From: an uncultured Gammaproteobacteria bacterium
GTDB lineage: Bacteria > Patescibacteriota > Patescibacteriia > VMEV01 > CAYQCH01
Direction: 5' to 3'
NCBI GenBank assembly: GCA_964415935.1
Contig: CAYQCH010000001.1
Coordinates: 1,144 to 65,143 of the forward strand
DNA length: 64,000 bases
The notes under the pieces were generated by a model. The model searched no databases. It was given only the letters and a program-made list of their open reading frames with translations, and was not told where the DNA came from. The translations under genes were made by a program, and so were the position numbers. Below are positions 1 through 63,593 of this stretch, piece after piece; position 1 is the first letter of the stretch, and the number at the start of each line of letters is the position of its first letter.

Positions 1-326
1 ACCATATGTACGGCCTGCGGCTCACTACCGTAAGTCTCTTTTACCGCCATGCGCACCTGATGCTTGTTGGCGTCCACGGCAACATAGAACACATACTTAT
101 TCTGTGCCTGTAACCGGAAACTTTTTTCCGTAGAAGCCGGCTGCAACAATACATGCGCCATGACCAACTCTTTGGCATCAGAAGCGGGCTTGCCCATCGC
201 AACAGGTTTGCTGGATACGGGTTTCGCGGCAGGCTTCACGGCCTTGGATTTCTTTGCCGCAGCAGGCTTGGCTGACGCCGGTTCTTTGGTAGTCTTCTTT
301 CGTTTGAATGTGTCAAGAATACCCAT
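1..326 (-). CDS. rplW: 50S ribosomal protein L23 (3' end outside window); N-terminal Lys/Ala-rich extension
   Basis: Reverse-strand translation from ATG at 326 gives MGILDTFKRKK...ELVMAHVLLQPASTEKSFRLQAQNKYVFYVAVDANKHQVRMAVKETYG, a typical L23 core. It sits immediately downstream of L4 in conserved S10-operon order. Confidence 0.7.
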   Translation of the reverse strand, partial: MGILDTFKRKKTTKEPASAKPAAAKKSKAVKPAAKPVSSKPVAMGKPASDAKELVMAHVLLQPASTEKSFRLQAQNKYVFYVAVDANKHQVRMAVKETYGSEPQAVHM

Positions 327-8271: not shown

Positions 8272-9301
8272 AGTCTATAAACATGGCGTCGCCAAAAGAA
8301 AAAAATCGGTATCTTTTTTGTATAGCCTCGTCATAGGCTTTCCGTATAAATTGCTGCCCAGCAAAGGCATAGACGAGTGCGAGCAAACTGGAATGCGGCG
8401 TGTGAAAATTGGTAATGAGGGCGTCAACAGCCTTGAACTGATATCCCGGGTAAATAAATATGCGTGTTTCCCCGCTGATCTCCCGTGATTGGCCGCGAAG
8501 CGACGGATCAGAAAAGACTGTTTCCAAAACTCGGACGCTAGTCGTGCCGACAGCGACGATACGCCTCCCTTCTTGCTTGGCCTGGCGAAGCCGCTGAAGG
8601 GTTTGCGCCCCAAGCGAGTACCACTCGCTATGAATGGGATGATCTTCCACATGGTCGGTCTTAATGGGCTGAAAGGTACCGAGGCCGACATGGAGCGTGA
8701 CAAATTCCTGCTGTACACCTTTTTGGATTAGACGATCGATTAGTTCCTGGGTGAAGTGCAACCCGGCGGTAGGCGCGGCAGCGGAGCCGGAATCTTGGGC
8801 AAAGACGGTCTGATATAAGGCCGCATCCTTCAGCGTTTTTTTAATATACGGCGGTGTGGGCATGGTGCCGATGGTCTCTATGGCACGCACCAACTCCGCC
8901 CCGCTTTTATTGAATTGCACCGTGGCTGTGGGGGTTGAGGCTGTCGGCCGGGTTATGACGGTTGCCGCCAGGCTTTTCGAACAGGAAAGCCTCTCTCCTG
9001 TATCCGCTTTTCCGCCCAACAGGCACTGCCACATTCCCCGCCCCAAATCGCGCAGCAAAAGGATCTCCACACGGCCTCCGCTGCCGCGTTTGGCCAATAT
9101 GCGCGCTGGCAGCACCTTGGAGTTGTTAAACACCAGCACATCTCCCGCCCGAAGATACGAAAAAATTTCCGTAAAGGTCTTGTGTTCCGCCGAACGGGTT
9201 GCCCGATGAAGGATCATCAGGCGGCAAGCATCCCTCGGCAATACGGGCTCCTGGGCGATGAGTTCCTGCGGCAAATCAAAATGCAGTTCATCGCGGCGCA
9301 T
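8270..9301 (-). CDS. queA: S-adenosylmethionine:tRNA ribosyltransferase-isomerase
   Basis: 343-aa ORF MRRDELHFDLPQELIAQEPV...; QueA N- and C-terminal conserved blocks (ends ...FFSFGDAMFI). Confidence 0.85.
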   Translation of the reverse strand: MRRDELHFDLPQELIAQEPVLPRDACRLMILHRATRSAEHKTFTEIFSYLRAGDVLVFNNSKVLPARILAKRGSGGRVEILLLRDLGRGMWQCLLGGKADTGERLSCSKSLAATVITRPTASTPTATVQFNKSGAELVRAIETIGTMPTPPYIKKTLKDAALYQTVFAQDSGSAAAPTAGLHFTQELIDRLIQKGVQQEFVTLHVGLGTFQPIKTDHVEDHPIHSEWYSLGAQTLQRLRQAKQEGRRIVAVGTTSVRVLETVFSDPSLRGQSREISGETRIFIYPGYQFKAVDALITNFHTPHSSLLALVYAFAGQQFIRKAYDEAIQKRYRFFSFGDAMFID

Positions 9302-17043: not shown

Positions 17044-18294
17044 CTATGGGATTATGGCCTTAAACCAAGATTTTACTTTTTCTTTGACAGAACCGAAGTT
17101 GGTAAAGCCCTGAAATCGGCCGCCGCTTCCCGCATGCATGTGCATGCCCCAGAGCAGCAAGCCTACGGCGACCGCATACATGGGGTCGTTTACCTTTTCA
17201 ATGGCCGTGGTCAACTCGCGCGGCACGCCGATTGAGGCTGGCAGGCGGAACTCCCGTTTAGCCACGTCGATAATGCCGTGCAGGCGCGAGCCGCCGCCGG
17301 TCAGGACCACGCCGGCCGGCAAAAGACCGCTGCGATTAATTTTCTTCAACTCTTTGTTCACCAGTTTAAAAATTTCTTCGATGCGCGCTTCGATGATTTC
17401 CGCCACCTGCCGGCGCGACACCAGATGGGATTCTCCTTCCTGGAACTCATTTAAATCAATCATTTCCTTTTTATCTACACTTTCTGGCAAAGACGTACCG
17501 TATTGCAGCTTCACTTGTTCCGCAATCTCTATGGACGTCCGTAACCCAATGGCAATGTCGGAAGTAATGTGACCCGCGCCCACGGGCAAGACTGCTGTAT
17601 GTAACACATCGCCTTCTTCGTAGACGACGACCGTGGTGGTTGCGCCGCCAAGGTTAACCAATGCCACACCCAGCTCTTTCTGCTGCTTATCTAGTACGCT
17701 TTCAGCAGCGGCCAGCCCAGCAAACACCGTGTCTTCAATGTCCAGCCCCGTGCGATAGACGGCTTTGGTAACGTTTTTTAATTGCGTGGAAAGTCCCTGG
17801 ATGATTTGCGCGTCGACTTCCAGGCGGATGCCGGTCATGCCTATGGGGTCTTTGATATGGCCCTGGTTGTCGACCGTATAAGAACGCGGGATGACATGCA
17901 AAATCTCGTAATTCGGCGGCGTTGCCACGGCCTGTGCCGCCTCAATGACGCGCTCCACGTCATCTTCGTTGATTTCTCCGTTCGCCTTGGAAACGGCAAT
18001 GACGCCTTTAGATGCCTGGGACAAAATATGGGCGCCGGAAATGCTTACAAAGGCACGCTCCAAAGGGACCCCGGCCATGCGTTCGCCCTTTTCTATGCAG
18101 CTCGTCAAGCAGGTAACGGCGTCTTCGATGCTGGTAACCACGCCTTTGCTTATGCCTTGCGAGGGGGTTTCGGCTACGCCAATAATATGCAGTTGCTGCC
18201 CCTCCCCGGCCTCATCCGGCACGAACTGACCGACTACCAAACGGATAGTCGATGATCCAATGTCCAACCCTGTAATGATATCGGACCGGCTCAT
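17044..18294 (-). CDS. ftsA: Cell division protein FtsA
   Basis: Actin-like ATPase motifs (GLDIGSSTIR, VNLGGATTTVV, LTGGGSRL) and position upstream of ftsZ. A TATATAAT -10 sits about 35 nt upstream. Confidence 0.9.
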   Translation of the reverse strand: MSRSDIITGLDIGSSTIRLVVGQFVPDEAGEGQQLHIIGVAETPSQGISKGVVTSIEDAVTCLTSCIEKGERMAGVPLERAFVSISGAHILSQASKGVIAVSKANGEINEDDVERVIEAAQAVATPPNYEILHVIPRSYTVDNQGHIKDPIGMTGIRLEVDAQIIQGLSTQLKNVTKAVYRTGLDIEDTVFAGLAAAESVLDKQQKELGVALVNLGGATTTVVVYEEGDVLHTAVLPVGAGHITSDIAIGLRTSIEIAEQVKLQYGTSLPESVDKKEMIDLNEFQEGESHLVSRRQVAEIIEARIEEIFKLVNKELKKINRSGLLPAGVVLTGGGSRLHGIIDVAKREFRLPASIGVPRELTTAIEKVNDPMYAVAVGLLLWGMHMHAGSGGRFQGFTNFGSVKEKVKSWFKAIIP

Positions 18295-21170: not shown

Positions 21171-23801
21171 TTAGAGCGCCTGCAAGAAGTCACACACGCG
21201 ATTATTATCAACATCTACGCATCCTAACACATAGGTCGTATTGCTTGTCGTCGAGGTTTGACCCTGGCTTGGGTCAGTCTTGGTGCTATTTCCTAGCCAC
21301 ACCATAAATCCTTGTCCTTGCTGGAAGTTCACGCGGTAGGTGTCTTGCGGCAAGAGATTGCCGCTGGGATCGCGACGGTCACGCAAGTGTTCGAGGACGA
21401 CAATGCCGCCGTTTGTGTCGATTTCCTTGGCATTCGGAAGGTAGATCCTGCCGCGGGCATACCCGCCGTTCGCCCAGGTTTCATTCGCGACCACTTCGTC
21501 GATAACCGCATCGCTGAGATTCAGTCGATGCATGGCGTTGTCATTGCCGCAATGTTCGCCATGCTTTGGAATAAAGTACGTCTGATACCTTACTTCCTGT
21601 CCGTTATACCGCCCCATCATGAAATGACCGCCGCACCCGCCATGAAACCAGGTTACAGAATCCGTCATCAACGGATATGGCAGTTTATAGTGCGAGGCGT
21701 TATACGGCCATCCCCACGGTGAACCAAACGACTGGCCATTGCGCGTAAAACTTTGTGAAGATGCGCCCGTGCAAGTCATTTGCAATTCCTCGGAAGTGGT
21801 ATCTGCCATGCTCCAACCCCAGGCACCCTTGTTCGCCACACAAAATGATTTGCGAGTATCGGCAACCACAGCATAGCTTGCTGTAACTTTGTTATTGGCC
21901 ACCTGACAGCTCTGGCACAAGCCCGGTGTTTTGGCATCATCGCATTTTTCAGGACCGTTCACCGTGCCGTCACCACAGAAACCAACCTGCCTGCATGCGT
22001 CATACGGCCCCCAGGTACAAAGAGGGTTTTGGGGCGTTGCTTCCTGAACACAGCGACGCAGTTTGTAAAAGTATGTTGGTTCAGGCTCGCAAGGAACGTC
22101 CTGCGTCTGGTTATCGCATGCCTCAAACGGGATATTGCGCGCTCCATCACCACAATACGGGCCACGCACGACATCGATTTTGCAGGAATTGGTGCAGTAG
22201 TTACAGGTTTTTCCGTACGCAGGCACGCAACGCTGTCCGTTCTTGTTGGACTCATCGCATTCTTCTCCCTGGTCAGCCTGAACGATGCCATCACCGCAGC
22301 GGGGGCCAAGCGCTTCCTGCACTTTGCAAACGCTGCTGCAGTAGGTGCAACGCTGCGCATATGCCGCCTGGCATTGCACGCCGTTTTGCTCAGATTCATC
22401 GCACGTCTCCAACCCGTTTATGATGCCGTCCCCGCAGGTTTCAATGGGCTGGCAATCAGTCCAAGGGGCGTATCTGCATGTATTGCGACAAACACGCACA
22501 CGTTGCGTGCGGTAGCCATTGATAAACGTGGAACACAACTGCGTTTCGTTATTCCCGTCGCATTCTTCGTTGAGGCCCTGCTCATTGGGGGTCTGCACCG
22601 TCCCGTCGCCGCAATACGCTACGGAGCGGACTGAACGGCAGTCTGCGGCGCATTCCTGGAACTCATTCACGCCTGATTGGCCGTCGCAAGCTTCGGTTCC
22701 TTCCGTGACATTATTACCGCAGGTTTGAAAATCGCATACGTCGCCGACGCCATCGCCGTCAAGATCTGTCTGATCTGAATTTCCGATCGTCGGACAGTTA
22801 TCTAAATTTCCGCAAACGCCATCGTTGTCCTGGTCGTTGGTGGGGTCATTTGGACAAGTGTCACAGGCGTTTCCCACGCCGTCACTGTCGGAATCAGACT
22901 GATCGGCATTGCTCACCGCCGGACAGTTGTCCACGGCGGCCCCCACCCCGTCCCCGTCAAAATCAGCGGAGTCGGCCGCGCTGAAGTTAAAGCATTGCCC
23001 GGCAGTCTGGTCGGAAAACGATTGCGTGCGCCAGCTGCCTGGTCCCTGATATTCAAAATTTGTAAACAAGTTGTAAGACAACCCGTCGGGATTGACTCGG
23101 TATGCATAGGCATATGCCTCGGGGGGACAGGAAAACTGCCTGTCTTCAACGGACCAGCAGGTCTTGGTATCATACGGGTCTTTGCAACCGATGAATTCAT
23201 TGCGCGGGTCAACGGGCACAGCAACACCGAGCAAATTCCCAAGTGTGGCCTGCCAGGACGGCCATGTGCTGTAGGTAGTGTTGGGTAAATAACTCCCCGC
23301 TTCAAAAACCGGATACTTGCCGGTCTTGACCCGGTACGACTCCAGATATCCCTGAATGTTGTTCAGGTCAGCGGCACGATGCATGTCGCGACGGATCTGC
23401 TCGCGCGTGGTCCTGTCAGTAATGTTCGTATTCAGCCGGAACTGCCTGAGAAATTCATTAAATACGGCCTGAACGGACTCGTCAGCCGTTTCGCTGTAAG
23501 AAATAAGATAAATATTGCTGTACAAGGTGCGAGAGTTGGCGTCGTAATTTGTTGCAGCCACATATACGGAGCGGCCGTCACGAACAGCAGGATATCCGTC
23601 GACTTCAAGCGCCGCGGGATTCCCAGGATTTGGCACGTTCGCGCGATACCATGTCAACGGAGATAGCCTGTCAGGGTTGGGAATAATACGTATGCCAATG
23701 GCCTGCCCGCGCCCAGTGTCTTGCGCCCGCGCAGGAAAACCGACTGCCGAGGCGGCAAACAGGCAGAAAACAATTGCTATGTAATATAGTGACTTTCTCA
23801 T
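21171..23801 (-). CDS. Large secreted cysteine-rich protein: TSP3-type repeats plus at least six Myxococcus-type cysteine-rich repeats (CGDG...EECD)
   Basis: Signal peptide from Met25 (MRKSLYYIAIVFCLFAASAVGFPARAQ). Repeats DSDSDGVGNACDTCPNDPTNDQDNDGVCGNLDNCP...DLDGDGVGDVCD. Six CGDG(x)n(E/T)CD units (e.g. CGDGIVQADQGEECDESNKNG). Cys-rich C-terminal domain. Confidence 0.6.
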   Translation of the reverse strand: MRKSLYYIAIVFCLFAASAVGFPARAQDTGRGQAIGIRIIPNPDRLSPLTWYRANVPNPGNPAALEVDGYPAVRDGRSVYVAATNYDANSRTLYSNIYLISYSETADESVQAVFNEFLRQFRLNTNITDRTTREQIRRDMHRAADLNNIQGYLESYRVKTGKYPVFEAGSYLPNTTYSTWPSWQATLGNLLGVAVPVDPRNEFIGCKDPYDTKTCWSVEDRQFSCPPEAYAYAYRVNPDGLSYNLFTNFEYQGPGSWRTQSFSDQTAGQCFNFSAADSADFDGDGVGAAVDNCPAVSNADQSDSDSDGVGNACDTCPNDPTNDQDNDGVCGNLDNCPTIGNSDQTDLDGDGVGDVCDFQTCGNNVTEGTEACDGQSGVNEFQECAADCRSVRSVAYCGDGTVQTPNEQGLNEECDGNNETQLCSTFINGYRTQRVRVCRNTCRYAPWTDCQPIETCGDGIINGLETCDESEQNGVQCQAAYAQRCTYCSSVCKVQEALGPRCGDGIVQADQGEECDESNKNGQRCVPAYGKTCNYCTNSCKIDVVRGPYCGDGARNIPFEACDNQTQDVPCEPEPTYFYKLRRCVQEATPQNPLCTWGPYDACRQVGFCGDGTVNGPEKCDDAKTPGLCQSCQVANNKVTASYAVVADTRKSFCVANKGAWGWSMADTTSEELQMTCTGASSQSFTRNGQSFGSPWGWPYNASHYKLPYPLMTDSVTWFHGGCGGHFMMGRYNGQEVRYQTYFIPKHGEHCGNDNAMHRLNLSDAVIDEVVANETWANGGYARGRIYLPNAKEIDTNGGIVVLEHLRDRRDPSGNLLPQDTYRVNFQQGQGFMVWLGNSTKTDPSQGQTSTTSNTTYVLGCVDVDNNRVCDFLQAL

Positions 23802-23869
23802 AAGGACACGGGGCGATTCATTGAAATGATACCAATTTCCCAGCCTGCGGTCTCTGTGTATAAAAGACA

Positions 23870-26800
23870 TCATTCAATGATGAACAGTGATTCCTTTAAC
23901 ACGCCCCCGACATTCTGGCCGGTAACGGGGCTGGACAGGGGCGGCAAGTCGTCATCAAACCCCGGCTCGCCGGCATCTCGGCAATAGAAAATGTCGTAAT
24001 TGAATGCCGTGTCGACGTACGGGAAGGACGTGATATCCGGCCACGGATTTTCACACAAGAAGGTTACGACATCCAGTGTGCGTGAAATGGTGCCCTGAGA
24101 CGGGGCCTGGGCGCGCGCCGTTACCGTCACCGTCGCTTCGCCATTCTGTGGATTCGGCGTCATTTCCACCTGCTCCCCCGTTGCAGGATCAAGCGTCAAA
24201 ATGGGGTCGCCTTCCACAGTCCAGGTAAAGTCAGCCGGGACAATGAATCCCGCTCGGTCGCGTCCGGTAGCCAGATAGGCATGCTGGTTCCCTTCTTTAG
24301 TCGCGTTTACGTCTCCCGGGCAGTCGTTTCGAGCGGCGCAGAATGCAACATCCAGGCGGCCGGGCTCACCGGGAGGCGTGATAAGGACATCCACGTAGTC
24401 GAGCTTGCATTCCGCTTTGCCTGTCCTGAACGTCCTGACATCTTCCCCGCTGACCGCAACGTTAAACGAGTTGCGTACTCCTTCGGGAACGTTGTCATCG
24501 AGGTTCAGGTCCCCCACCGTCCGAACGCGGTACTGGCGGTCATCCTGGAGTTTTTGCTTCGGATATACGCGGGCGCTGCTGCCGACGTCCGTATTTGAAA
24601 CGCTGACGCTGGACTCAACGCGGCACCAGTTTTCTCCTTGCGCCTGCGTGGCGGGAATCACCCAGGACAGCGCGCGGGAGGCATAGTATTTTGCTTTTGG
24701 CCACCATGCCGTAGGCGCCACGGAAGGGCATGGGATGCCGCCATTATTGATTTCCAAAATGATGCCGCTGACCAAAGACGCCTGGTTCATGGGCTGGTCA
24801 AACTCTAGCTCTATACCCAGCGTCGTACAGACGGCTTCGGCACCGTTTCGCGGATTGCTACCGATAATCCCAGGGCGCGGATAGCAGCATGAATCGGATC
24901 CGACGCCATGCGACTGGACCGTAGCCGGAGATGGACATTGATTGTCGGTTTGAAAACCGCATTGCACCGTAAAATCTCCTTCACCATTAACCCCCTGGGT
25001 GGAGGCGCGCACCTTTGTGGATCCTTCGCCGCGGCTGGTGGTAATTTGCGCCCAGTCCTTGAAATTCTCTAAAGGCAATACATCTTGCTGGGTAACGGAA
25101 GCAACCTTTGGAACGGATACGCCCCAGACCCAGTCCATGGTATCGCCGCGCAGAATCTGACCATACTGGTTACATGCGTCAGCGGGAGCTACCGGCAACG
25201 CCTGGTAGTTGAATTCTTCCAATATGAGGCTGGATATGGCTGTAGGCGGATCAATAAGCACGTCTTCAATCTGACACTGATTGGGGTCATTTCTGGTGCT
25301 GAATAGCCAGGAATAGCTGTCAATGGTGCCATCCCCGTCGGCGTCGTAGTTTAATCCCGAAAGCGGCAGCCCGCTTGCGCTGCGCATGCCCTTGAGGACG
25401 ACGCGGTACTTGGTGGCGACTTTAAACGCGCTGATATTAGGCAGGAAGTGCAGGGTAAAGCTTGTATTGTTATAGGTCAGGCTGGTTACGCCGATACTGG
25501 CGGTATTGGCGCGCGCGCAGGCCGCGTCTTTACATTCGTGTAATTCCACGTTGGCGTTAGCCGTAACCGAAGCTTCCTGCATTTCTTGATTGAATTTCGC
25601 GCCCAACGCGGCGTTGATGCAAGCGCTTGAGCAATTCGGCCATTTATCCACCACCAAAGGCGGCTCCAAAGAAATACGCAACTGACCGCTGTCTTCCTTG
25701 CTGAACTCCGGAATGGACGCAATGATATCAACCGCCGGGCCAGGATCGGTGGCACCTTTCGCCGTGGCGCGATTTTGGTATGTCCTGGACGTTTCCAGAA
25801 CAGCTTTTGATGTATCCGCGCTCAGCCAGCCCCATGTATAGGCGCTGCCGTCGAGGATATTGCAATTCAAGGCAGTGGCAACGCCCGTATACGCTTGCGT
25901 CGCACCAACTTTTTTCAACGTGGCCGTGGCTGGTGTCACTTCGACATGATCAACAGCACAGGCCCCTTCTCCCGACTGCGTCTTAAACGTCCATCGATAC
26001 GGGTTTTCCATCCTGTTGCCGTTTTCCGCTTCCACGGTATTGGCAATCGTTACCTGGTACCAGGTGTCAGGAACAAACGCCGGTTGAGGCTGGGCGATAA
26101 AGCCTTCGCCCGGCTGATTGGAATTGATGATGACAAAATTACTGAGGCTCACCGTTGTTTGGCAGCTACCGCCATCAAAGGAAGGGCCGGTGTTGCAGCG
26201 GCGCAGCTCAACTGTTCCCGCGTTCAGCGTGGCGTCCTTCATATCATGGGTAAAGCGGGCGGAAACAGCCGCGTTCAAACAAGCATCAACGGTGTCCTTA
26301 AATGGTGACGGGCTTTGCGTGTTGTTTTTGCACGTCGCTTGCTCGATGACGCGCGGGATGCCGCCCAGGTCGTCGCCCGTGCCGAATGTCCAGGAATACG
26401 TACACAACGGCAGGGCCTCGGAACAGGTTCCGGCGGCCTGGCATGCTCCAGAAGAGCAGCATTCAAAGCCTGTTCCGCACGTGTCCGGGCTGCATTGTCC
26501 AACACGGAAGTTCAACCCGTTGCTTAGTTGTCCCGTGGAGGCAATGACTTGTACCAATCCCGTCTGGGCCGTGGGCGGCACGGCTACGCGGATCTGCCCG
26601 TCGTTCCAGGAAACAACGTCCGAAATATCAACGCGCGAATGGAAGCGTACGCCCCCCTTGTTTACGCCGAATCCCTCGCCATACAACACGGTTTCAATGC
26701 CTAGCGGGCCGTTGTCAGGTTCCATGGCGCACAGTCCGGGCAACCGGCCGCCGGCGGTAACGGTAAAGCTGGCCGGATTGCTGCGACCAGCATCTGTTTC

Positions 26801-28864
26801 TAAAAATACTTCGTAAATACCTGGATCCAGGCGCGGGACCCGGAACGCGCGCTGCTCGCCTTTGCGGAAGAAGCGCAAACAGCTGTCCGGCAGTCTGGTG
26901 TCGGCCAGCGTGACTTCACCTGTGCGCGGGTTTAAAAACTTCACAAGCGGCGTGCGCGACAAATTTTCGCCGATGATGGAGAAAATTTGTCCGACCGGGC
27001 CGCGATCCGGAGAAACGGAATCCAGGCGCGGCAACGTAGGCGATGAGGTCACAGACATGAACACCGGATTGCTGGTCAACGGACCTACCTGCACGCGCAC
27101 GGGCACGACACCCTCCGGCAGGGATGGCACGACCACATCGGAAATCTGTTCGTCTGCCCAGGTGCCGATGCGTCCGGCCCTGGCTTGTCCAAAGGAAACA
27201 TCGCCTAGCGTGGCTCCAAAGCCGTTGCCGCGCAGCGTAACCGGCTCTCCAACTTGCTGGCTGCCCGGTTCAACCGCGCATAAACCCGGGCGCCGCGTGT
27301 CGTTGATTTCAAAAATCACGCGTCCACCCTTGTCGTCATCGGTGGTGTCATACAACCCCTCTGCCGTGGTCAGACGAAGCGCGCCTGTGCGAGCGTTGGC
27401 AGGCACCTGCAGCACGACCTGCGTGTTGCTCCAGGCCCCGACGCATGGAAACGCGTCAACCGTTGCATCGTCGTCGTCCGCGCTCAAGCCAAGAAACACA
27501 AGCGTACCGGTTTCTGTTCCGAAATTACGTCCGCGGACGGTAACAAAATTTCCAGGCGCGCCATTGGCCTCAATCACTTCTTCAATCACCGGATAGTCAC
27601 GGCAGAATCCGCCGACACAGAGGCCGGAGGCGCACTGCGAATTTTCCGTACACGCGGCGCCCTGGCAGAGACGGCAGGTCGGGCCGCCGCAATCGACGCC
27701 TTCTTCATCCTCATTCTGCTGGCCGTCAAAACAATAGGCGGGCAAAATTTCCACGGATATTTCCGGGCTCAGCCCGGTCTGTCCCGCTAAATCAACGGCC
27801 GCGGCTGTAATGGCGTGACGGCTCTTTAGCGCAAGATCGATGGTAAGCCAGGTCGCGCTGCCGCGAAATTCAGTAACGACATCGGGACCGGAAGCCGGCG
27901 CCACGCCCACGGACGATCCATCAACAAAAAATTCCAAAAAGGCCACGGCATAGTCGTCCAATGCCAGGGCTTCCAACAACACGGAGCTGTTCTGCCCCAC
28001 CGCCGCGTCATTATATGGCAAAGTCATGCGAGCCGTGGGAGCGATGGTATCGACAGCCTCACCGGTCACAAATCCAAATGCGCACTGCGAAGTTGGCGAC
28101 GGACAACGGAAGGCATCGCCATCGGCGCTGGTCAAAGCGGAACTTATAACCGCTTCATAGGCCACATTCGCGTCAAAGCAGCGGACTTGTTCATTCGGCG
28201 AGGGACAAGCCTGGTTGGGAACGAATATGGCCCGGCTTCCCTTTACCGACCACGATCCGGCTACAGGAGCTGTTTCACCGGTCTTGCGGACATAGGCATT
28301 CTGCTCAATACCGGTCTGCGTGATGTCCTGGTTAAACAGCAGCTGCACCTGGACGTTGCGGATGGGCACCACGCCGGAAGGCAAGGCATCAATGAGCAAC
28401 AACGCGTCGCGCGTGTCCAGGCCGCTTTGTCCGACCGGCTGCGACAAAGGCGCCTGCTGGCTGGCTCGGCGCTGCTGGCTGCGAATGACAACGAAGCTGA
28501 TAAGCAGCAGTACCGCACAGAGCACGAATACAATGCCAAACACCAGCGCCAGGCGGCGGCCGCGCTCCAAAACAAGGATGTCATTGTTCTGGCTGCCATT
28601 TCGCCAAAGCACGATGCCGTAACTCATGCCTGCCAGGCTGAGAATGAGGCCGACGAATGCGGTTAACTGCAATACGCGCCATACCGTACTCGGCTGAGCT
28701 GCTTCCACTGTGGTTTGCGCCACATTTTGCGACGACGCGCCTTCCGTGACCTGAACGGCGTCCTGGGCCAGAGCCGGAATGGCCACAGCAAAGACTGCAC
28801 CCCAGGCAAACAAAGCGGACACAAGCATGGATCGAAAACAGCGCATACTCAAGCTACGGACCAA
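23870..28864 (-). CDS. Giant surface protein (1664 aa): signal peptide plus TrbC/VirB2-like two-helix membrane hairpin, then Ig-like (Big), Cys-knot and IPT/TIG repeat arrays
   Basis: N-terminus: signal peptide (...AIPALAQ), then hydrophobic helix, W-R-N-G-S-Q-N-N loop, hydrophobic helix. Multiple IPT/TIG-like units (PRLDSVSPDRGPVGQIFSIIGENL, LCAVEPGSQQVGEPVTLRGNGFG). Has D..AP-type Big starts. No LPXTG or C-terminal TM. Overlaps or abuts the upstream gene. Confidence 0.6.
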   Translation of the reverse strand: MVRSLSMRCFRSMLVSALFAWGAVFAVAIPALAQDAVQVTEGASSQNVAQTTVEAAQPSTVWRVLQLTAFVGLILSLAGMSYGIVLWRNGSQNNDILVLERGRRLALVFGIVFVLCAVLLLISFVVIRSQQRRASQQAPLSQPVGQSGLDTRDALLLIDALPSGVVPIRNVQVQLLFNQDITQTGIEQNAYVRKTGETAPVAGSWSVKGSRAIFVPNQACPSPNEQVRCFDANVAYEAVISSALTSADGDAFRCPSPTSQCAFGFVTGEAVDTIAPTARMTLPYNDAAVGQNSSVLLEALALDDYAVAFLEFFVDGSSVGVAPASGPDVVTEFRGSATWLTIDLALKSRHAITAAAVDLAGQTGLSPEISVEILPAYCFDGQQNEDEEGVDCGGPTCRLCQGAACTENSQCASGLCVGGFCRDYPVIEEVIEANGAPGNFVTVRGRNFGTETGTLVFLGLSADDDDATVDAFPCVGAWSNTQVVLQVPANARTGALRLTTAEGLYDTTDDDKGGRVIFEINDTRRPGLCAVEPGSQQVGEPVTLRGNGFGATLGDVSFGQARAGRIGTWADEQISDVVVPSLPEGVVPVRVQVGPLTSNPVFMSVTSSPTLPRLDSVSPDRGPVGQIFSIIGENLSRTPLVKFLNPRTGEVTLADTRLPDSCLRFFRKGEQRAFRVPRLDPGIYEVFLETDAGRSNPASFTVTAGGRLPGLCAMEPDNGPLGIETVLYGEGFGVNKGGVRFHSRVDISDVVSWNDGQIRVAVPPTAQTGLVQVIASTGQLSNGLNFRVGQCSPDTCGTGFECCSSGACQAAGTCSEALPLCTYSWTFGTGDDLGGIPRVIEQATCKNNTQSPSPFKDTVDACLNAAVSARFTHDMKDATLNAGTVELRRCNTGPSFDGGSCQTTVSLSNFVIINSNQPGEGFIAQPQPAFVPDTWYQVTIANTVEAENGNRMENPYRWTFKTQSGEGACAVDHVEVTPATATLKKVGATQAYTGVATALNCNILDGSAYTWGWLSADTSKAVLETSRTYQNRATAKGATDPGPAVDIIASIPEFSKEDSGQLRISLEPPLVVDKWPNCSSACINAALGAKFNQEMQEASVTANANVELHECKDAACARANTASIGVTSLTYNNTSFTLHFLPNISAFKVATKYRVVLKGMRSASGLPLSGLNYDADGDGTIDSYSWLFSTRNDPNQCQIEDVLIDPPTAISSLILEEFNYQALPVAPADACNQYGQILRGDTMDWVWGVSVPKVASVTQQDVLPLENFKDWAQITTSRGEGSTKVRASTQGVNGEGDFTVQCGFQTDNQCPSPATVQSHGVGSDSCCYPRPGIIGSNPRNGAEAVCTTLGIELEFDQPMNQASLVSGIILEINNGGIPCPSVAPTAWWPKAKYYASRALSWVIPATQAQGENWCRVESSVSVSNTDVGSSARVYPKQKLQDDRQYRVRTVGDLNLDDNVPEGVRNSFNVAVSGEDVRTFRTGKAECKLDYVDVLITPPGEPGRLDVAFCAARNDCPGDVNATKEGNQHAYLATGRDRAGFIVPADFTWTVEGDPILTLDPATGEQVEMTPNPQNGEATVTVTARAQAPSQGTISRTLDVVTFLCENPWPDITSFPYVDTAFNYDIFYCRDAGEPGFDDDLPPLSSPVTGQNVGGVLKESLFIIE

Positions 28865-30470
28865 CGCAAGGCTGGTAGCAATTCTGATAAATGTCTTTTA
28901 CGTTTGATGACACAACGGGCGTGTATGTCGCATTCTCATCCAACCCTGCGTGCACCATCTGCACGACCGTCTGATTTTCTTCCACGGACGAAGAAATCTG
29001 ATAATCAAGCCCGGGAACCTGCACGGTCTGGCGGTTGATGGTCTTTAACCACAGGGGTTTATCGAAGGTAACGGTCAAGCGGCTGTCGCGCGGGACCAGC
29101 GTGGCGTATGGCTGCGGCGATACCGCGCTCACGACGGGCGCGCGCAGGTCTATCTGGTCAGTGGTTTGAAAACTCCAGGCGAAGTCGTCGGCCGGGCTGC
29201 CTTGCGCTGCGCCGTCGACATTGCCATCAAAGGAGTTGCCTGACGCATCTACGACGCCGTCAAACGGAAAGACGGCCACCGGCGGTTGCGCGCTGACCGT
29301 GGCAGCGCGGACGCGTGCCGTAAACTTGGCGCTGGGCGGCAAGCAAAACACGTCCTGGCCGCAGGAATTGGTGCCACATAAATCATTGGTGACGAATTCG
29401 GCCGTGCGGTACTGGTTGCTGATGGTAAACCGGCCTGCCACCACTTCCCCGTTCTGTCCGCGCACGCTCAGGTTGTTAAATCCGCGCGCGGTATCGCCGC
29501 TGACGGCCAAGGGGTTCATGGCTTCGCTGAACGTCACCTGCACGATAATGTTGCGAGCATACGTCTGATCCGGTTGCGGGATAACGCTGACCACGCGCGG
29601 CGGCTCCAGATCAACAAACGTCCCCACCTCGAATTCCCAGGTATAGGCGCCGAAATTACCAAACGCCCCCCTGCCGGCCGCGGTGGAAATGCCCTCTCCC
29701 AGCGTTACGCGATACAGGGTGTTTTGTTCGGCGCTGCCGAGCAAGTCAATGGGGTCAATGACCAGGATGCGGGCGTCGTCGCTGACTGCCGCGCGCGCCG
29801 GAACAAACGGACCGGACTGCGGGTCATCGCTGGCCTTGGAGATAAAAATATTTTGGCCGTTAATCTCGTCGTCGGCCGGATCTTCCGTGCCCTTGTTATT
29901 AATGAGTGAGTCAACCAGCATGGGCTCAACGAAACTGACCATGATGTTGGTGTTGCGCGCAAGATTGGTCTGGCCGCGGTCGGGATAGTGCGATTCGATT
30001 ACGCCCAAAGGAAATCCGCCGCCCCCGCCCAAAAACCCGCCTGTGCCGCGGCGGCCAAAGGATGACGGTTGTGTCTCCGGACCGCCCACCAGGCGGTTGA
30101 GGACGAACGTTACAATGCCGAAAGAAGACAAGATGATGATCAAACCAATCAGGCCGTTGCGCAACAGCGTCTTGGCCGTATTGACCTGGTCATCATTGCC
30201 CGCCGCGGTCATCCAAAGATATCCCGCATATAAAAGCAGCCCCAGGGCGACAATTCCTAAAAAGCCCAGGGCCACTTGTATGACGCGCGCGATAATGACG
30301 CGCGGGTCGCTTCCGCTCAATCCAACCGATTCCGCTTGCTCCAGCCCGACGTCTACCGTCTGGGCAAAAGCCGGTTCATGCAAAACCAGGGATGAAACAA
30401 GCAACGCGGCGATGATGAATCCCGCGAAAATGATGATGCGTTTCAACCCCGAAAGCATGGGAACTTGCAT
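28854..30470 (-). CDS. Surface protein (538 aa) with TrbC/VirB2 pilin-like N-terminal anchor followed by SbsA-type Ig-like (Big_5) domains
   Basis: N-terminus: signal peptide (..HEPAFAQ), then QVALGFLGIVALGLLLYAGYLWMTAAGNDDQVNTAKTLLRNGLIGLIIILSSFGIVTFV, two hydrophobic helices with a short polar loop as in VirB2/TrbC. Gly-rich linker. Two Ig-like modules begin PRVVSVIPQPDQTYA and RAPVVSAVSPQPYATL. Confidence 0.55.
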   Translation of the reverse strand: MQVPMLSGLKRIIIFAGFIIAALLVSSLVLHEPAFAQTVDVGLEQAESVGLSGSDPRVIIARVIQVALGFLGIVALGLLLYAGYLWMTAAGNDDQVNTAKTLLRNGLIGLIIILSSFGIVTFVLNRLVGGPETQPSSFGRRGTGGFLGGGGGFPLGVIESHYPDRGQTNLARNTNIMVSFVEPMLVDSLINNKGTEDPADDEINGQNIFISKASDDPQSGPFVPARAAVSDDARILVIDPIDLLGSAEQNTLYRVTLGEGISTAAGRGAFGNFGAYTWEFEVGTFVDLEPPRVVSVIPQPDQTYARNIIVQVTFSEAMNPLAVSGDTARGFNNLSVRGQNGEVVAGRFTISNQYRTAEFVTNDLCGTNSCGQDVFCLPPSAKFTARVRAATVSAQPPVAVFPFDGVVDASGNSFDGNVDGAAQGSPADDFAWSFQTTDQIDLRAPVVSAVSPQPYATLVPRDSRLTVTFDKPLWLKTINRQTVQVPGLDYQISSSVEENQTVVQMVHAGLDENATYTPVVSSNVKDIYQNCYQPCVGP

Positions 30471-30752: not shown

Positions 30753-30933
30753 GCTGTCACCGTCCTTTCAGTTGTATAAATAATGAGGGCAGTTTTTTGC
30801 TCGCTGCCGAATGCCAGCGTACCAAAAAACAGGCTGGTGCGTCAACTACCGGATGATGCGATACTTTGATAACAACGTTTTAAAAAACCGGCTGTTCATG
30901 AACCTACTTTCCAAACATATTTTAGCAAAAGAA

Positions 30934-30990
30934 AAGAGTCCGGAGAACATTCTTGCATCTTGCGACGCAAGCATCTCACGGACTCTGTTC
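30934..30990 (-). terminator. Nested-hairpin terminator with U-tract downstream of orphan paralog A
   Basis: Minus strand reads cagagtccg-[inner hairpin cttgcgtcgcaag]-ccggactct, followed by tttcttttg. Confidence 0.5.
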
Positions 30991-31053
30991 GGTGCGAAGA
31001 ACCAAGGATCAAGAATCCAAAAGTTCCAAGTTACCAAAGACCAAGTTCCTAGT

Positions 31054-31896
31054 TCACTCCCCGACAGGGCCAGGAACGGCGAAGTTCCTATCGTGAAAGT
31101 CGCCGTTGTCGTCGCTGAGCCGCACCCGGCGCTCACTCTGAAAGAAGATGAGCCAGGGAACGGCGGACCAGCGGCCTTCATAGAAGCACTGATAGCCGGG
31201 CAGCCACACAAACGGTACGGACTCGCCGTCCATGGCTTCCACCCACCACCTGTGGATGGCCGCCGCAGCCAGAATGCTGGCATGCGGCGACTGTGCGTTG
31301 CGCACGTCGCGCGGCCGGATGCCGTTCTGCTGGTCCCAGTTTGCGCCCAGGTCGATGGTCTCCCACCTCAGGCACCTGCCCGGATGGATGATGCCATCAA
31401 GCAGCTTGGCCAGGGCCTGGGCGCTCTTGAGCCGATCCCAGCGCCAGGTATTGGCATGACGCGCCTCGACGGCGCGCCACAGACCATCGAAAGTCGTCTG
31501 GACCGTATCCAGATACGGAACCAAGGTCACAGCAGCCAAATTGTGCAGCTGGACCGTCGGCCAGGCCGTCGGAACTGGCAGCGACGCGAAGTCGTCGGCC
31601 GTGAAGCCCCAGCCCAGGCGCTGGTTGAGTTCCCAGACCACCCTCACCTGCTTAACAATGGACTCGAACAAGGCATTGCTGGGTGACGGAAGGTGCGGGC
31701 TGCACTCCGCCATCGCCGTCTCCTGATCCGTGTTCAGGGCCAGGATGGCCGGAAGGATGCCGGCCGCCGCGGTGAGCAGCAGCTGCCGCTCTTGAATTGC
31801 GCCAGCGCGGGTTCGCGCCCTCAGCAGGCGCGCGTCATCCTCAGGGGCGCCGCTTACGGACGCCCCGCGTTGCAAAGCGCGAACCGACCAGTCCAT
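31054..31896 (-). CDS. Hypothetical protein, orphan family member A (paralog of 62889..63593)
   Basis: 280-aa ORF. Shares blocks with the second copy: DWSVRAL/DWVVRAAL, LGWGFTADDFASLPVP/FGWGLADKDFLRLPAP, LRWETIDLGA/MRWEVIDLGA, SPHASILAAAAIH/SPHAGILAAMALH, and a C-terminal AVP. Has its own promoter region and terminator. Confidence 0.5.
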   Translation of the reverse strand: MDWSVRALQRGASVSGAPEDDARLLRARTRAGAIQERQLLLTAAAGILPAILALNTDQETAMAECSPHLPSPSNALFESIVKQVRVVWELNQRLGWGFTADDFASLPVPTAWPTVQLHNLAAVTLVPYLDTVQTTFDGLWRAVEARHANTWRWDRLKSAQALAKLLDGIIHPGRCLRWETIDLGANWDQQNGIRPRDVRNAQSPHASILAAAAIHRWWVEAMDGESVPFVWLPGYQCFYEGRWSAVPWLIFFQSERRVRLSDDNGDFHDRNFAVPGPVGE

Positions 31897-32102
31897 GGCT
31901 ATCCCCCAATGTTGTTTATGAATGTGTTTTTAACACTCCGGGAACGCCCAGGAATATTTGGTCAAAATATTACTAAAATTTTATGATTTTGTCAAGTATT
32001 TTGAGATCGATTTCAGTTTTTGTGTCGACCGCACGACAAAATTGTGATACAGTACATGTACCCCAAATTTTTGCCTCTGCCGCATAATCATTCACGTTCA
32101 TT

Positions 32103-32411
32103 ATGTCGCAGGCAGAGCGCAATTTTTATACTCTCACAGAACGTATGGCTACCCTGGAAGCCAAAGAAAAGGACTTACGTACCATCACAATGGATGGGTT
32201 TGCCGAGATGCGAACAAAATTCCAATGGGTCGAAGACGGGTTTGCTAGGATGGACAAGGAATTCCAGCTTGTCCATAAAAAATTTGCTCAACACGAAGAG
32301 CAAATCGATTTTCTTGCCGTAGAGCTAGTAAATCGTACCGACCGTCTGGAAAAAAAATTCGACGCAATGGCCGCAAAAATTGACCTCATTTACAAAGCCC
32401 TGGCCATATAA
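32103..32411 (+). CDS. Small coiled-coil hypothetical protein (102 aa)
   Basis: Charged heptad-like sequence (MATLEAKEKDLRTI...RLEKKFDAMAAKIDLIYKAL). AT-rich upstream region with a GTACATGTAC palindrome. Weak coding evidence. Confidence 0.35.
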   Translation: MSQAERNFYTLTERMATLEAKEKDLRTITMDGFAEMRTKFQWVEDGFARMDKEFQLVHKKFAQHEEQIDFLAVELVNRTDRLEKKFDAMAAKIDLIYKALAI

Positions 32412-62811: not shown

Positions 62812-62862
62812 CAATGATGTTCCAAATAAAAAAGAGCCCGGAGCGTTCGACATGCGAGTGCT
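62812..62862 (-). terminator. Hairpin plus U-tract downstream of orphan paralog B
   Basis: Minus strand reads gagcccg...cgggctc followed by tttttt. Confidence 0.4.
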
Positions 62863-62888
62863 CAACGGGCTCATGACTCTGATCCTCC

Positions 62889-63593
62889 TTATGCGACGAA
62901 GCACGGAACCGCCGTGGTGGAAAACGCTTCATCGAGCGGGCGCAGGCCCAAATAGAGCCTGGGCTTCTGCCAAAAGACGCTGGGGACGTAGATCTTGCTC
63001 GATCCGCGCCGCCGACGCGCTTCGTAGCCGGCGAGATGCACGAACATCGCCCGGCACCAGCCATCCATGGTAATGGTCCACTTATCGTGAAGCGCCATCG
63101 CCGCGAGAATGCCCGCATGCGGAGATGACAGCGGCGAACGGACCTGGGAAACGGCCTTGCCCTCATGCGCGCCGAGGTCGATGACCTCCCAACGCATCAG
63201 CCGGCGAGGATGATGGCTGCCTTCGAGAACCGTGAGATGGCTGGCGTCCGGCCGCACGCGATCCAGCCGGCAGTACCTGCCCAGTTGCCATTCGATGGCC
63301 TGCCACCAGCGTCGAAACGTTTCTTCCACGTTACGGAAGTACACGGCCAGGACAATGGCCGTATGCTTCCCCGGCGGGCGCGGCGGCGGCGCAGGAAGCC
63401 GCAGAAAGTCCTTGTCCGCCAGACCCCAGCCGAACACGCTGTTGTAGGCGTAGACGCGGCTGAGTTGCTCTTCCGGCAAGGCATGCCACCAGGGCATGCC
63501 ATTCTCTTCGTGGCAGACCCGCAGCGCGCGGATGTCTGCTCGTTTCAACAATGCTGCGCGGACGACCCAATCGTCCACGATCTTCATGATCAT
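62889..63593 (-). CDS. Hypothetical protein, orphan family member B (paralog of 31054..31896)
   Basis: Start at Met86 of ORF 62889..63848 (MIMKIVDDWVV...), preceded by GGAGG. Shares blocks with copy A. Confidence 0.5.
   Translation of the reverse strand: MIMKIVDDWVVRAALLKRADIRALRVCHEENGMPWWHALPEEQLSRVYAYNSVFGWGLADKDFLRLPAPPPRPPGKHTAIVLAVYFRNVEETFRRWWQAIEWQLGRYCRLDRVRPDASHLTVLEGSHHPRRLMRWEVIDLGAHEGKAVSQVRSPLSSPHAGILAAMALHDKWTITMDGWCRAMFVHLAGYEARRRRGSSKIYVPSVFWQKPRLYLGLRPLDEAFSTTAVPCFVA

Follow-up and report, generated by a model that had tools for sequence, protein, structure and literature searches.

We propose that genes A and B, two minus-strand genes in the 64-kb stretch of DNA analysed here (the window), belong to an unannotated Patescibacteria family whose C-terminal, C-type-lectin-like (CLec-like) domain is a target of diversity-generating retroelements (DGRs). 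Gene A carries the footprint of DGR mutagenesis by a cassette that is either remote or lost, and gene B is an old paralog that is not diversified. We give this reading as a whole a probability of about 0.8.

The signature of a DGR is a template repeat (TR) together with a variable repeat (VR) and adenine-specific mutagenesis. Two clues led to what the family is: gene A and its 89%-identical ortholog have nearly all their differences close to the C-terminus, and in another locus, L004, a reverse transcriptase (RT) is encoded just downstream of a member of the same family.

Two paralogs of a large unannotated family

Gene A (31054..31896, minus strand) encodes a DGR variable-protein family member of 280 aa, with a helical N-terminal domain (approximately residues 1-105) followed by a predicted divergent C-type-lectin-like domain. 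Gene B (62889..63593, minus strand) encodes a paralog of 234 aa with a C-terminal region that is fixed and not being diversified. Both had been proposed as genes in an earlier, sequence-only reading of the window, and both are real ORFs of these lengths on this strand. The start of gene B at the ATG at 63593 is backed by an upstream AGGAGG ribosome-binding site and by the N-terminus of the family alignment; a longer ORF of 319 aa is possible but unsupported, as its hydrophobic extension is seen in no homolog.

The sequence-only reading had also taken the two products as kin, a claim that an E-value > 0.01 in a pairwise alignment would speak against. The BLASTP alignment of A and B has E = 1e-21, with 37% identity over 157 aa. 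Among the shared blocks that had been listed by eye, LGWGF.., RWE.IDLGA and SPHA.ILAA do lie inside this alignment, whereas the N-terminal pair DWSVRAL/DWVVRAAL falls outside any significant alignment. The AVP at the end of both proteins is a motif found across the whole family.

The family has no name that we could attach to it, as had been said before. Neither A nor B has a Pfam or NCBIfam match at E <= 1, including the FGE-sulfatase (PF03781) and Lectin_C families, and none of the 32 aligned family members (0/32) matches Pfam. On the other hand, the description of A and B as orphans does not survive a profile search. A word-indexed search finds few relatives (23 and 15 clusters), while a family profile built from 32 sequences brings up 1,026 cluster representatives at E <= 1e-3, and 298 of them still pass at E <= 1e-30. 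Counted at 50% identity in Patescibacteria metagenomes, that is about 1,000 clusters without annotation, so the family is large but unannotated, as opposed to orphan. Those homologs that carry a name come from MAGs labelled "Patescibacteria group bacterium". The conserved motifs of the family are RWEVIDLGAN, SPHAGILAAAALHPxWVxAMDG, VPYVWLPGYE and the C-terminal AVPxFxRE, and its invariant residues are F136, D182, H205, W218, G234, Y235 and P275.

Association of the family with DGRs

In L004, the last 135 nucleotides of the family gene (8671..8805) are repeated without gaps at 9126..9260. The two copies have 17 mismatches, and all 17 are an adenine in the downstream copy against a G or T in the gene, always at codon positions 1-2. 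We surveyed for such TR/VR pairs 80 metagenome loci with family genes, plus the loci obtained by protein look-up. At least nine related loci have one, such that the last ~130 nt of the gene (the VR) recur 300-550 nt downstream as a TR.

A cognate TR that differs from the VR only, or almost only, at adenines is present in seven loci: L004, L021, L030, L032, L036, L091 and L093. Next to the 17/17 of L004, the mismatches that fall on TR adenines are 21/21 in L021 (which has duplicates in L022 and L083), 13/13 in L030, 20/21 in L036, 15/17 in L032, and all except one in L091; L093 has 3 non-A mismatches in 133 nt. The pattern is weaker in L015 (12 of 18 mismatches at adenines) and in L038. In every cis-DGR locus, a gene for an Avd-type four-helix bundle is encoded on the strand opposite to the target, and every one has an RT of ~330 aa after the TR, except for L091, whose contig stops inside Avd. 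The relatives of these Avd proteins carry PF22296. In two loci, the RT is split into two overlapping ORFs (L004, 9684..10681; L015, 11565..12564), which may stem from a frameshift, from faulty assembly or from decay of the element.

In the reading proposed here, these complete loci work as follows. The TR, 300-550 nt downstream of the gene, is transcribed and then reverse-transcribed by the DGR RT together with Avd; the RT misincorporates opposite template adenines; and the resulting cDNA overwrites the VR (the final ~130 nt of the gene), so that about 15-20 codons in a putative ligand-binding surface become randomized.

Not all family members are found next to a DGR. About two thirds of the assessable family loci have no cis DGR, among them all 30 of the 30 loci that do not have the 3′ hairpin described below. 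With both cis DGR and hairpin missing from many loci, the family also exists independently of DGRs, possibly outside of the Patescibacteria. One family clade of higher GC (L039-L089, for instance L042, L044, L066 and L077), 32-37% identical to A, has neither 3′ hairpin nor cis DGR; many of its members come from one soil or desert sample series.

Other loci have the hairpin and no TR beside the gene. A 156-kb contig (Ga0265297_10000320) has two family paralogs, L017 and L018, which are ~30 kb apart, 82% identical, and both followed by the CTTGG hairpin. No TR is found within 10 kb of either one. The differences between them are twice as dense in the last 150 nt as upstream, mostly at codon positions 1-2, which suggests two remote targets of one TR. 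Locus L026 has a weak match to the Avd profile (107..250, plus strand, E = 8.6e-8) some 9.8 kb upstream of a hairpin-positive family gene without an adjacent TR, and there may be a non-adjacent DGR just past the edge of this locus.

The mutational footprint in gene A

Two alleles of gene A are known, the second one in a sister strain (ENA contig L002). Identity between the window and L002 is 98.8% over 18.9 kb. Even so, 71 of the 229 mismatches are inside gene A between nt 462 and 815. The flanks of the gene differ from the sister strain by ~0.9%.

Along gene A, the comparison with L002 changes character three times. Nucleotides 1-459 have one single mismatch between the alleles. The following divergent tract (nt 460-705; 31192..31437, minus strand) has 46 mismatches, which amount to 22 synonymous and 14 nonsynonymous codon differences. 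Then comes the hypervariable part of the VR (nt 706-816, residues ~236-272; 31081..31191, minus strand) with 24 mismatches, and those produce 0 synonymous and 16 nonsynonymous codon differences. Finally, nt 817-843 have 0 mismatches, and the 3′ end of the VR (GCCGTTCCTGGCCCTGTCGGGGAGT; 31056..31080, minus strand) is invariant. The synonymous/nonsynonymous contrast between nt 460-705 and nt 706-816 has p = 2.8e-5. In the hypervariable part, 21 of the 24 mismatches are at codon positions 1-2, and there are doublet changes in codons of the form xxC, such as ATC/GAC, GAC/TTC, AAC/CTC and TTC/AGC.

The divergent tract is itself unusual. Its 246 nt are 19% different from those of a sister strain that is ~99% identical elsewhere, the differences are mostly synonymous, and it directly adjoins the VR. 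By its sequence, it looks like an allelic recombination import that ends at the 3′ end of the VR. As for the invariant GCCGTTCCTGGCCCTGTCGGGGAGT segment, its position makes it the probable counterpart of the IMH-like segment that VR and TR have in common in the cis-DGR loci; in L004 and L091, the TR/VR homology stops at the analogous place.

Can adenine-specific mutagenesis be recognized in a gene that has no TR at its side? The closest non-conspecific relative of A (P0003, 56% identity, locus L091) does have a cis TR, and we can use that TR as a proxy. The VR of A aligns with it without gaps. At non-A sites of the TR, 59 of 64 positions are identical (~92%), versus 11-13 of 29 at the A sites. 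And of the 20 sites that vary between the two A alleles, 16 fall on adenines of the L091 TR (Fisher p = 4e-7). This adenine bias persists when only codon positions 1-2 are considered (p = 4.5e-4). An adenine-specific pattern of this kind implies that the two A alleles are independent mutagenized copies of a TR much like that of L091. In copy A, the variation between alleles thus has the features expected of a DGR target (on TR adenines, at codon positions 1-2, with non-A sites conserved); copy B does not show this pattern.

The stasis of copy B

Relative to the sister strain, copy B has 8 mismatches in its 705 nt, and just 2 of them in the last 135 nt. Across four alleles, some as low as 94% identical, the last 45 aa are nearly invariant. 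No compatible TR for B is found in any locus examined, and the covariance model finds no CTTGG hairpin for it. Copy B is an old paralog, 37% identical to A, that is no longer diversified.

The predicted fold

The sequence-only reading had suggested a structure prediction followed by a fold search. The first part works well: the AlphaFold model of A, for which the family alignment served as input, is very confident (pLDDT 94.2, pTM 0.92). The fold search does not, with nothing significant from Foldseek against either PDB or BFVD; a profile search against PDB sequences returns only noise. The model shows a helical N-terminal region (~residues 1-105) and an alpha/beta domain with the VR in its last strands. 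Going by this model, the fold of the A/B family is predicted to be a divergent C-type lectin with the VR embedded in it. No signal peptide and no transmembrane segment are found in the family protein. Uncharacterized VR domains of CPR targets are expected to be new CLec variants without recognizable membrane anchors (PMC8144416), and the model of A fits this published expectation.

A conserved hairpin downstream of the variable repeat

Downstream of the stop codon, most family loci of low to medium GC have a long hairpin in which CTTGG/CTCGG is abundant. Aligning 14 of these hairpins yields a consensus helix of 17 bp, with compensatory double changes in 14 of the 17 pairs. The loop usually has 4 nt, and a TT/TT internal mismatch is conserved because both arms carry CTTGG.

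A covariance model of this hairpin finds 21 matches at E <= 0.01 in 682 kb of family loci. Of these, 20 are located ~10-90 nt 3′ of a family gene on the same strand, six of the loci being outside the seed, and none (0/21) is next to a TR. Six of the seven cis loci have 24-31 nt between the VR end and the hairpin, and the other one (L030) has 64 nt; for copy A this distance is 20 nt. In the 45 unique loci that can be assessed, a cis DGR is present in 8 of the 15 that are hairpin-positive versus 0 of the 30 that are hairpin-negative (p = 3e-5).

For gene A, the nested-hairpin terminator and the CCAAG/CCAAA tract that had been noticed downstream are both there. The CTTGG-rich tract (30995..31050, minus strand), which reads CCAAG on the plus strand, is the family hairpin in a degenerate form. 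It starts 20 nt after the end of the VR, and its match to the covariance model (R1) has 13.9 bits and E = 0.83, at 30995..31035. The nested hairpin with a T-run (30925..30986, minus strand) is, by RNA folding, the probable intrinsic terminator of A. It is also present in L091, where its outer stem has undergone a compensatory change. The 3′ UTR of A folds better than 200 of 200 shuffles (z = -3.5). A simple terminator scanner flagged neither hairpin. The best match of the model anywhere in the window (17056..17110, minus strand; 15.3 bits, E = 0.37) overlaps the 3′ end of a 416-aa ORF (17044..18294), and we judge it to be at chance level.

In L021, L030, L091 and window gene A, the family hairpin has no T-run and a second hairpin that has one comes after it, which speaks for a role of the first one beyond termination. 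We regard the 3′ hairpin as a candidate target-recognition signal of CPR DGRs.

Genomic setting

The window is a gene-dense stretch of Patescibacteria type. Among the products encoded in it are ribosomal protein S21, HisRS, signal peptidase, LytR, Der and ATP synthase, as well as a T4SS-pilin/Big_5 protein and giant Big_5/TIG/TSP3 proteins. The neighbours of both A and B are housekeeping genes. No tRNA genes and no Rfam families at gathering score are found in the 64 kb.

Gene A does sit between AT-rich stretches, as previously described, with flanks of 37-44% GC around a gene of 65%. This contrast extends to other members: family genes are far richer in GC than the loci that host them (65% versus 54% in the window, 61% versus 36% in L024, 62% versus 44% in L038), as seen for A and B in the window and in L004, L021, L024, L030, L032, L036, L038 and L090-L092. 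The high GC could come from horizontal spread with the DGR cassette, or from a compositional constraint such as adenine avoidance.

Each copy looks like a stand-alone unit, in agreement with the sequence-only reading. Each has its own hairpin and T-run, that of B being the probable terminator GAGCCCG...CGGGCTC + T6 (62824..62872, minus strand), which has no CTTGG motif. Gene A also has an upstream promoter-like site, TTGACA-17-TAATAT (31967..31995, minus strand), with 10 of 12 consensus matches.

In locus L090, the gene order Der-LytR-SPase-HisRS-[family gene]-S21-pilin/Big_5 is that of the window. The neighbouring proteins are 82-93% identical between the two, compared with 53% for the family protein and 24% for its VR segment, which is the most divergent part of A relative to this syntenic ortholog. 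The position of A is conserved in L090 and L002, and that of B in L008; in a sister strain, the neighbourhood of B is conserved.

Divergent from gene A and upstream of it, there is an ORF of 102 aa (32103..32411, plus strand), coiled-coil-like and without a Pfam match. It is present in the sister strain and missing from L090, where the gap between HisRS and the family gene is 208 nt. Directly downstream of S21 and gene A is a run of surface-type proteins (21171..30470, minus strand), with a 538-aa protein with T4SS_pilin and Big_5, a 1664-aa protein with Big_5, TIG and Big_7, and a 900-aa protein with TSP_3 repeats. L090 has this run in a syntenic arrangement. That the adhesin-like cluster has any functional tie to the variable protein would be pure speculation.

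Where is the donor cassette of gene A?

The cognate TR of A would be a VR-like sequence of ~120 nt that has an adenine at each variable position and ends in GCCGTTCCTGGCCCTGTCGGGGAG. In the 64-kb window and the 10 kb past its end, there is no cognate TR for either A or B, by BLAST with 7-nt words or by an exhaustive scan that takes TR adenines as wildcards. The wildcard scan gives at least 42 non-A mismatches in the window versus 0 and 14 in the positive controls. RT and Avd are also absent from the window, by tblastn with the L004 RT and by HMMs from the cis loci run over the six frames, and from the next 10 kb; as a positive control, the same RT and Avd HMMs match every cis-DGR locus. The DNA covered is ~74 kb of a genome of roughly 1 Mb. 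With no TR, Avd or RT within that distance, the donor is either remote or lost.

Two wider searches did not bring it closer. A scan with the invariant VR end of A, in a collection of genome contigs that does not include copy A itself, gives only a chance match in a Planctomycetota contig (L009). A protein search with the Avd fragment of L091 gives 5 Avd relatives, and the four contigs examined are from other organisms or samples.

Distance by itself is not an obstacle. Remote targets more than 100 kb from their RT have been documented (PMC5758913), and metagenome surveys state that they miss such targets (PMC8144416). Proximity to an RT is thus typical, not obligatory. Copy A may have been reached in one of two ways: it would be a remote target of a cassette elsewhere in the genome, or the cassette would have acted in another lineage, which donated the 3′ part of the allele by recombination.

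Alternative explanations

Could gene A be a former DGR target that has lost its cassette, and whose VR differences came along with the adjacent tract in one single event of homologous recombination, from a lineage with a present or past DGR? We think this quite possible, even if we would not bet on it. The divergent block (nt 460-816) is one uninterrupted stretch with near-identical sequence on either side, the 3′ hairpin of A is degenerate, there are no DGR components in the 64 + 10 kb, and in the syntenic L090 locus, too, there is no TR and nothing but a plain terminator. But the VR has 0 synonymous differences while the 82 codons of the adjacent tract have 22, which places the copying of both VRs, from near-identical TRs, after the divergence of the tracts. 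And the DNA covered is ~74 kb out of ~1 Mb, when remote targets are documented (PMC5758913). A bolder proposal takes the opposite side: gene A is an active remote target of a DGR elsewhere in the genome, the CTTGG hairpin is a sequence-specific element for recognition in trans, and B together with the hairpin-less clade are targets retired by loss of the hairpin. We offer it tentatively, as something rather unlikely in this complete form.

The other two alternatives are both very improbable. One would have A and B as ordinary fast-evolving orphan paralogs, in which relaxed or positive selection, and no retroelement, made the C-termini diverge. It can point to the absence of DGR components from the window, and to the fact that the whole protein, not the C-terminus alone, outpaces its neighbours in evolution. 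Selection of either kind does not account for variation that singles out the adenines of a TR (p = 4e-7), for 16 nonsynonymous and 0 synonymous codon differences in the VR, or for the textbook TR/VR pairs with Avd and RT in several family members; this explanation is strongly disfavoured. The other one comes from the sequence-only reading, which saw in A and B copies of a mobile or recently duplicated autonomous cassette. Both genes are indeed GC-rich islands (63-65%) amid AT-rich spacers, each with its own hairpin and T-run. However, family genes exceed their host loci in GC wherever they occur, A and B are just 37% identical, a comparison of their flanks finds no common repeats or boundaries, A is syntenic in a relative ~10% divergent at the protein level, and no family member is found in a scan of viral contigs. 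Synteny and divergence already contradict a cassette of this kind.

Comparison with known systems

Variable proteins of DGRs with a C-type-lectin fold include Mtd of the Bordetella phage BPP-1, TvpA of Treponema denticola, and archaeal and Thermus examples. The A/B family differs from these in having no match in Pfam at the sequence level or in the PDB with Foldseek, in lacking a signal peptide and transmembrane segments, and in its N-terminal helical domain of ~100 aa.

By description, the family resembles the DGRs of CPR bacteria, both those that Roux et al. 2021 (PMC8144416) place in "DGR clade 2" and the CPR set of Wu et al. 2018 (PMC5758913), which has the unknown VR classes UVR1-6. Both sets have CPR hosts and a cellular target without recognizable domain or membrane anchor, and in the cis loci of the family, as in those DGRs, one target adjoins the TR, Avd and RT. 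The target in the window differs in having no adjacent DGR, which puts it in the class that those surveys say they miss. In that respect it is closer to the remote targets of Treponema denticola and Trichodesmium (PMC5758913, PMC8867640), where a footprinted target gene is far from any RT or TR. In those organisms, however, the cognate TR is known in the same genome, while for A, with no TR found in ~74 kb, the remote status is deduced.

[quoted passage not shown] Like the structure downstream of the IMH described by Guo et al. 2011 (PMC3240598), the family hairpin is an inverted repeat with a short loop, at a near-constant spacing (24-31 nt), and absent beside the TRs. There are also differences. 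The family stem has 17 bp versus a GC-rich stem of 7-10 bp, the loop is T-rich (TTCG, TTTT) and not GRNA, CTTGG is present on both arms, and in many loci the family hairpin doubles as a T-run terminator.

Significance

That DGRs of CPR bacteria diversify small CLec-like proteins is already established. What this analysis gives is a mechanistic label for an unannotated family of ~1,000 clusters at 50% identity, as a DGR-diversified, predicted binding protein with a divergent C-type-lectin fold. Worth following up are the hairpin conserved downstream of the VR, and the way in which a target without a nearby DGR could be recognized. A DGR target can be recognized with neither RT nor TR in view, from the absence of synonymous changes between strains, from doublet changes in xxC codons, and from the TR of a relative. 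These signs apply to remote or orphaned targets, precisely the class that metagenome surveys say they miss. The hairpin, in turn, is a testable candidate for the recognition signal of CPR DGRs. If gene A were indeed an active target in trans and the CTTGG hairpin its recognition element, we would have a new variant of the DGR target signal, and with it a rule for finding remote targets.
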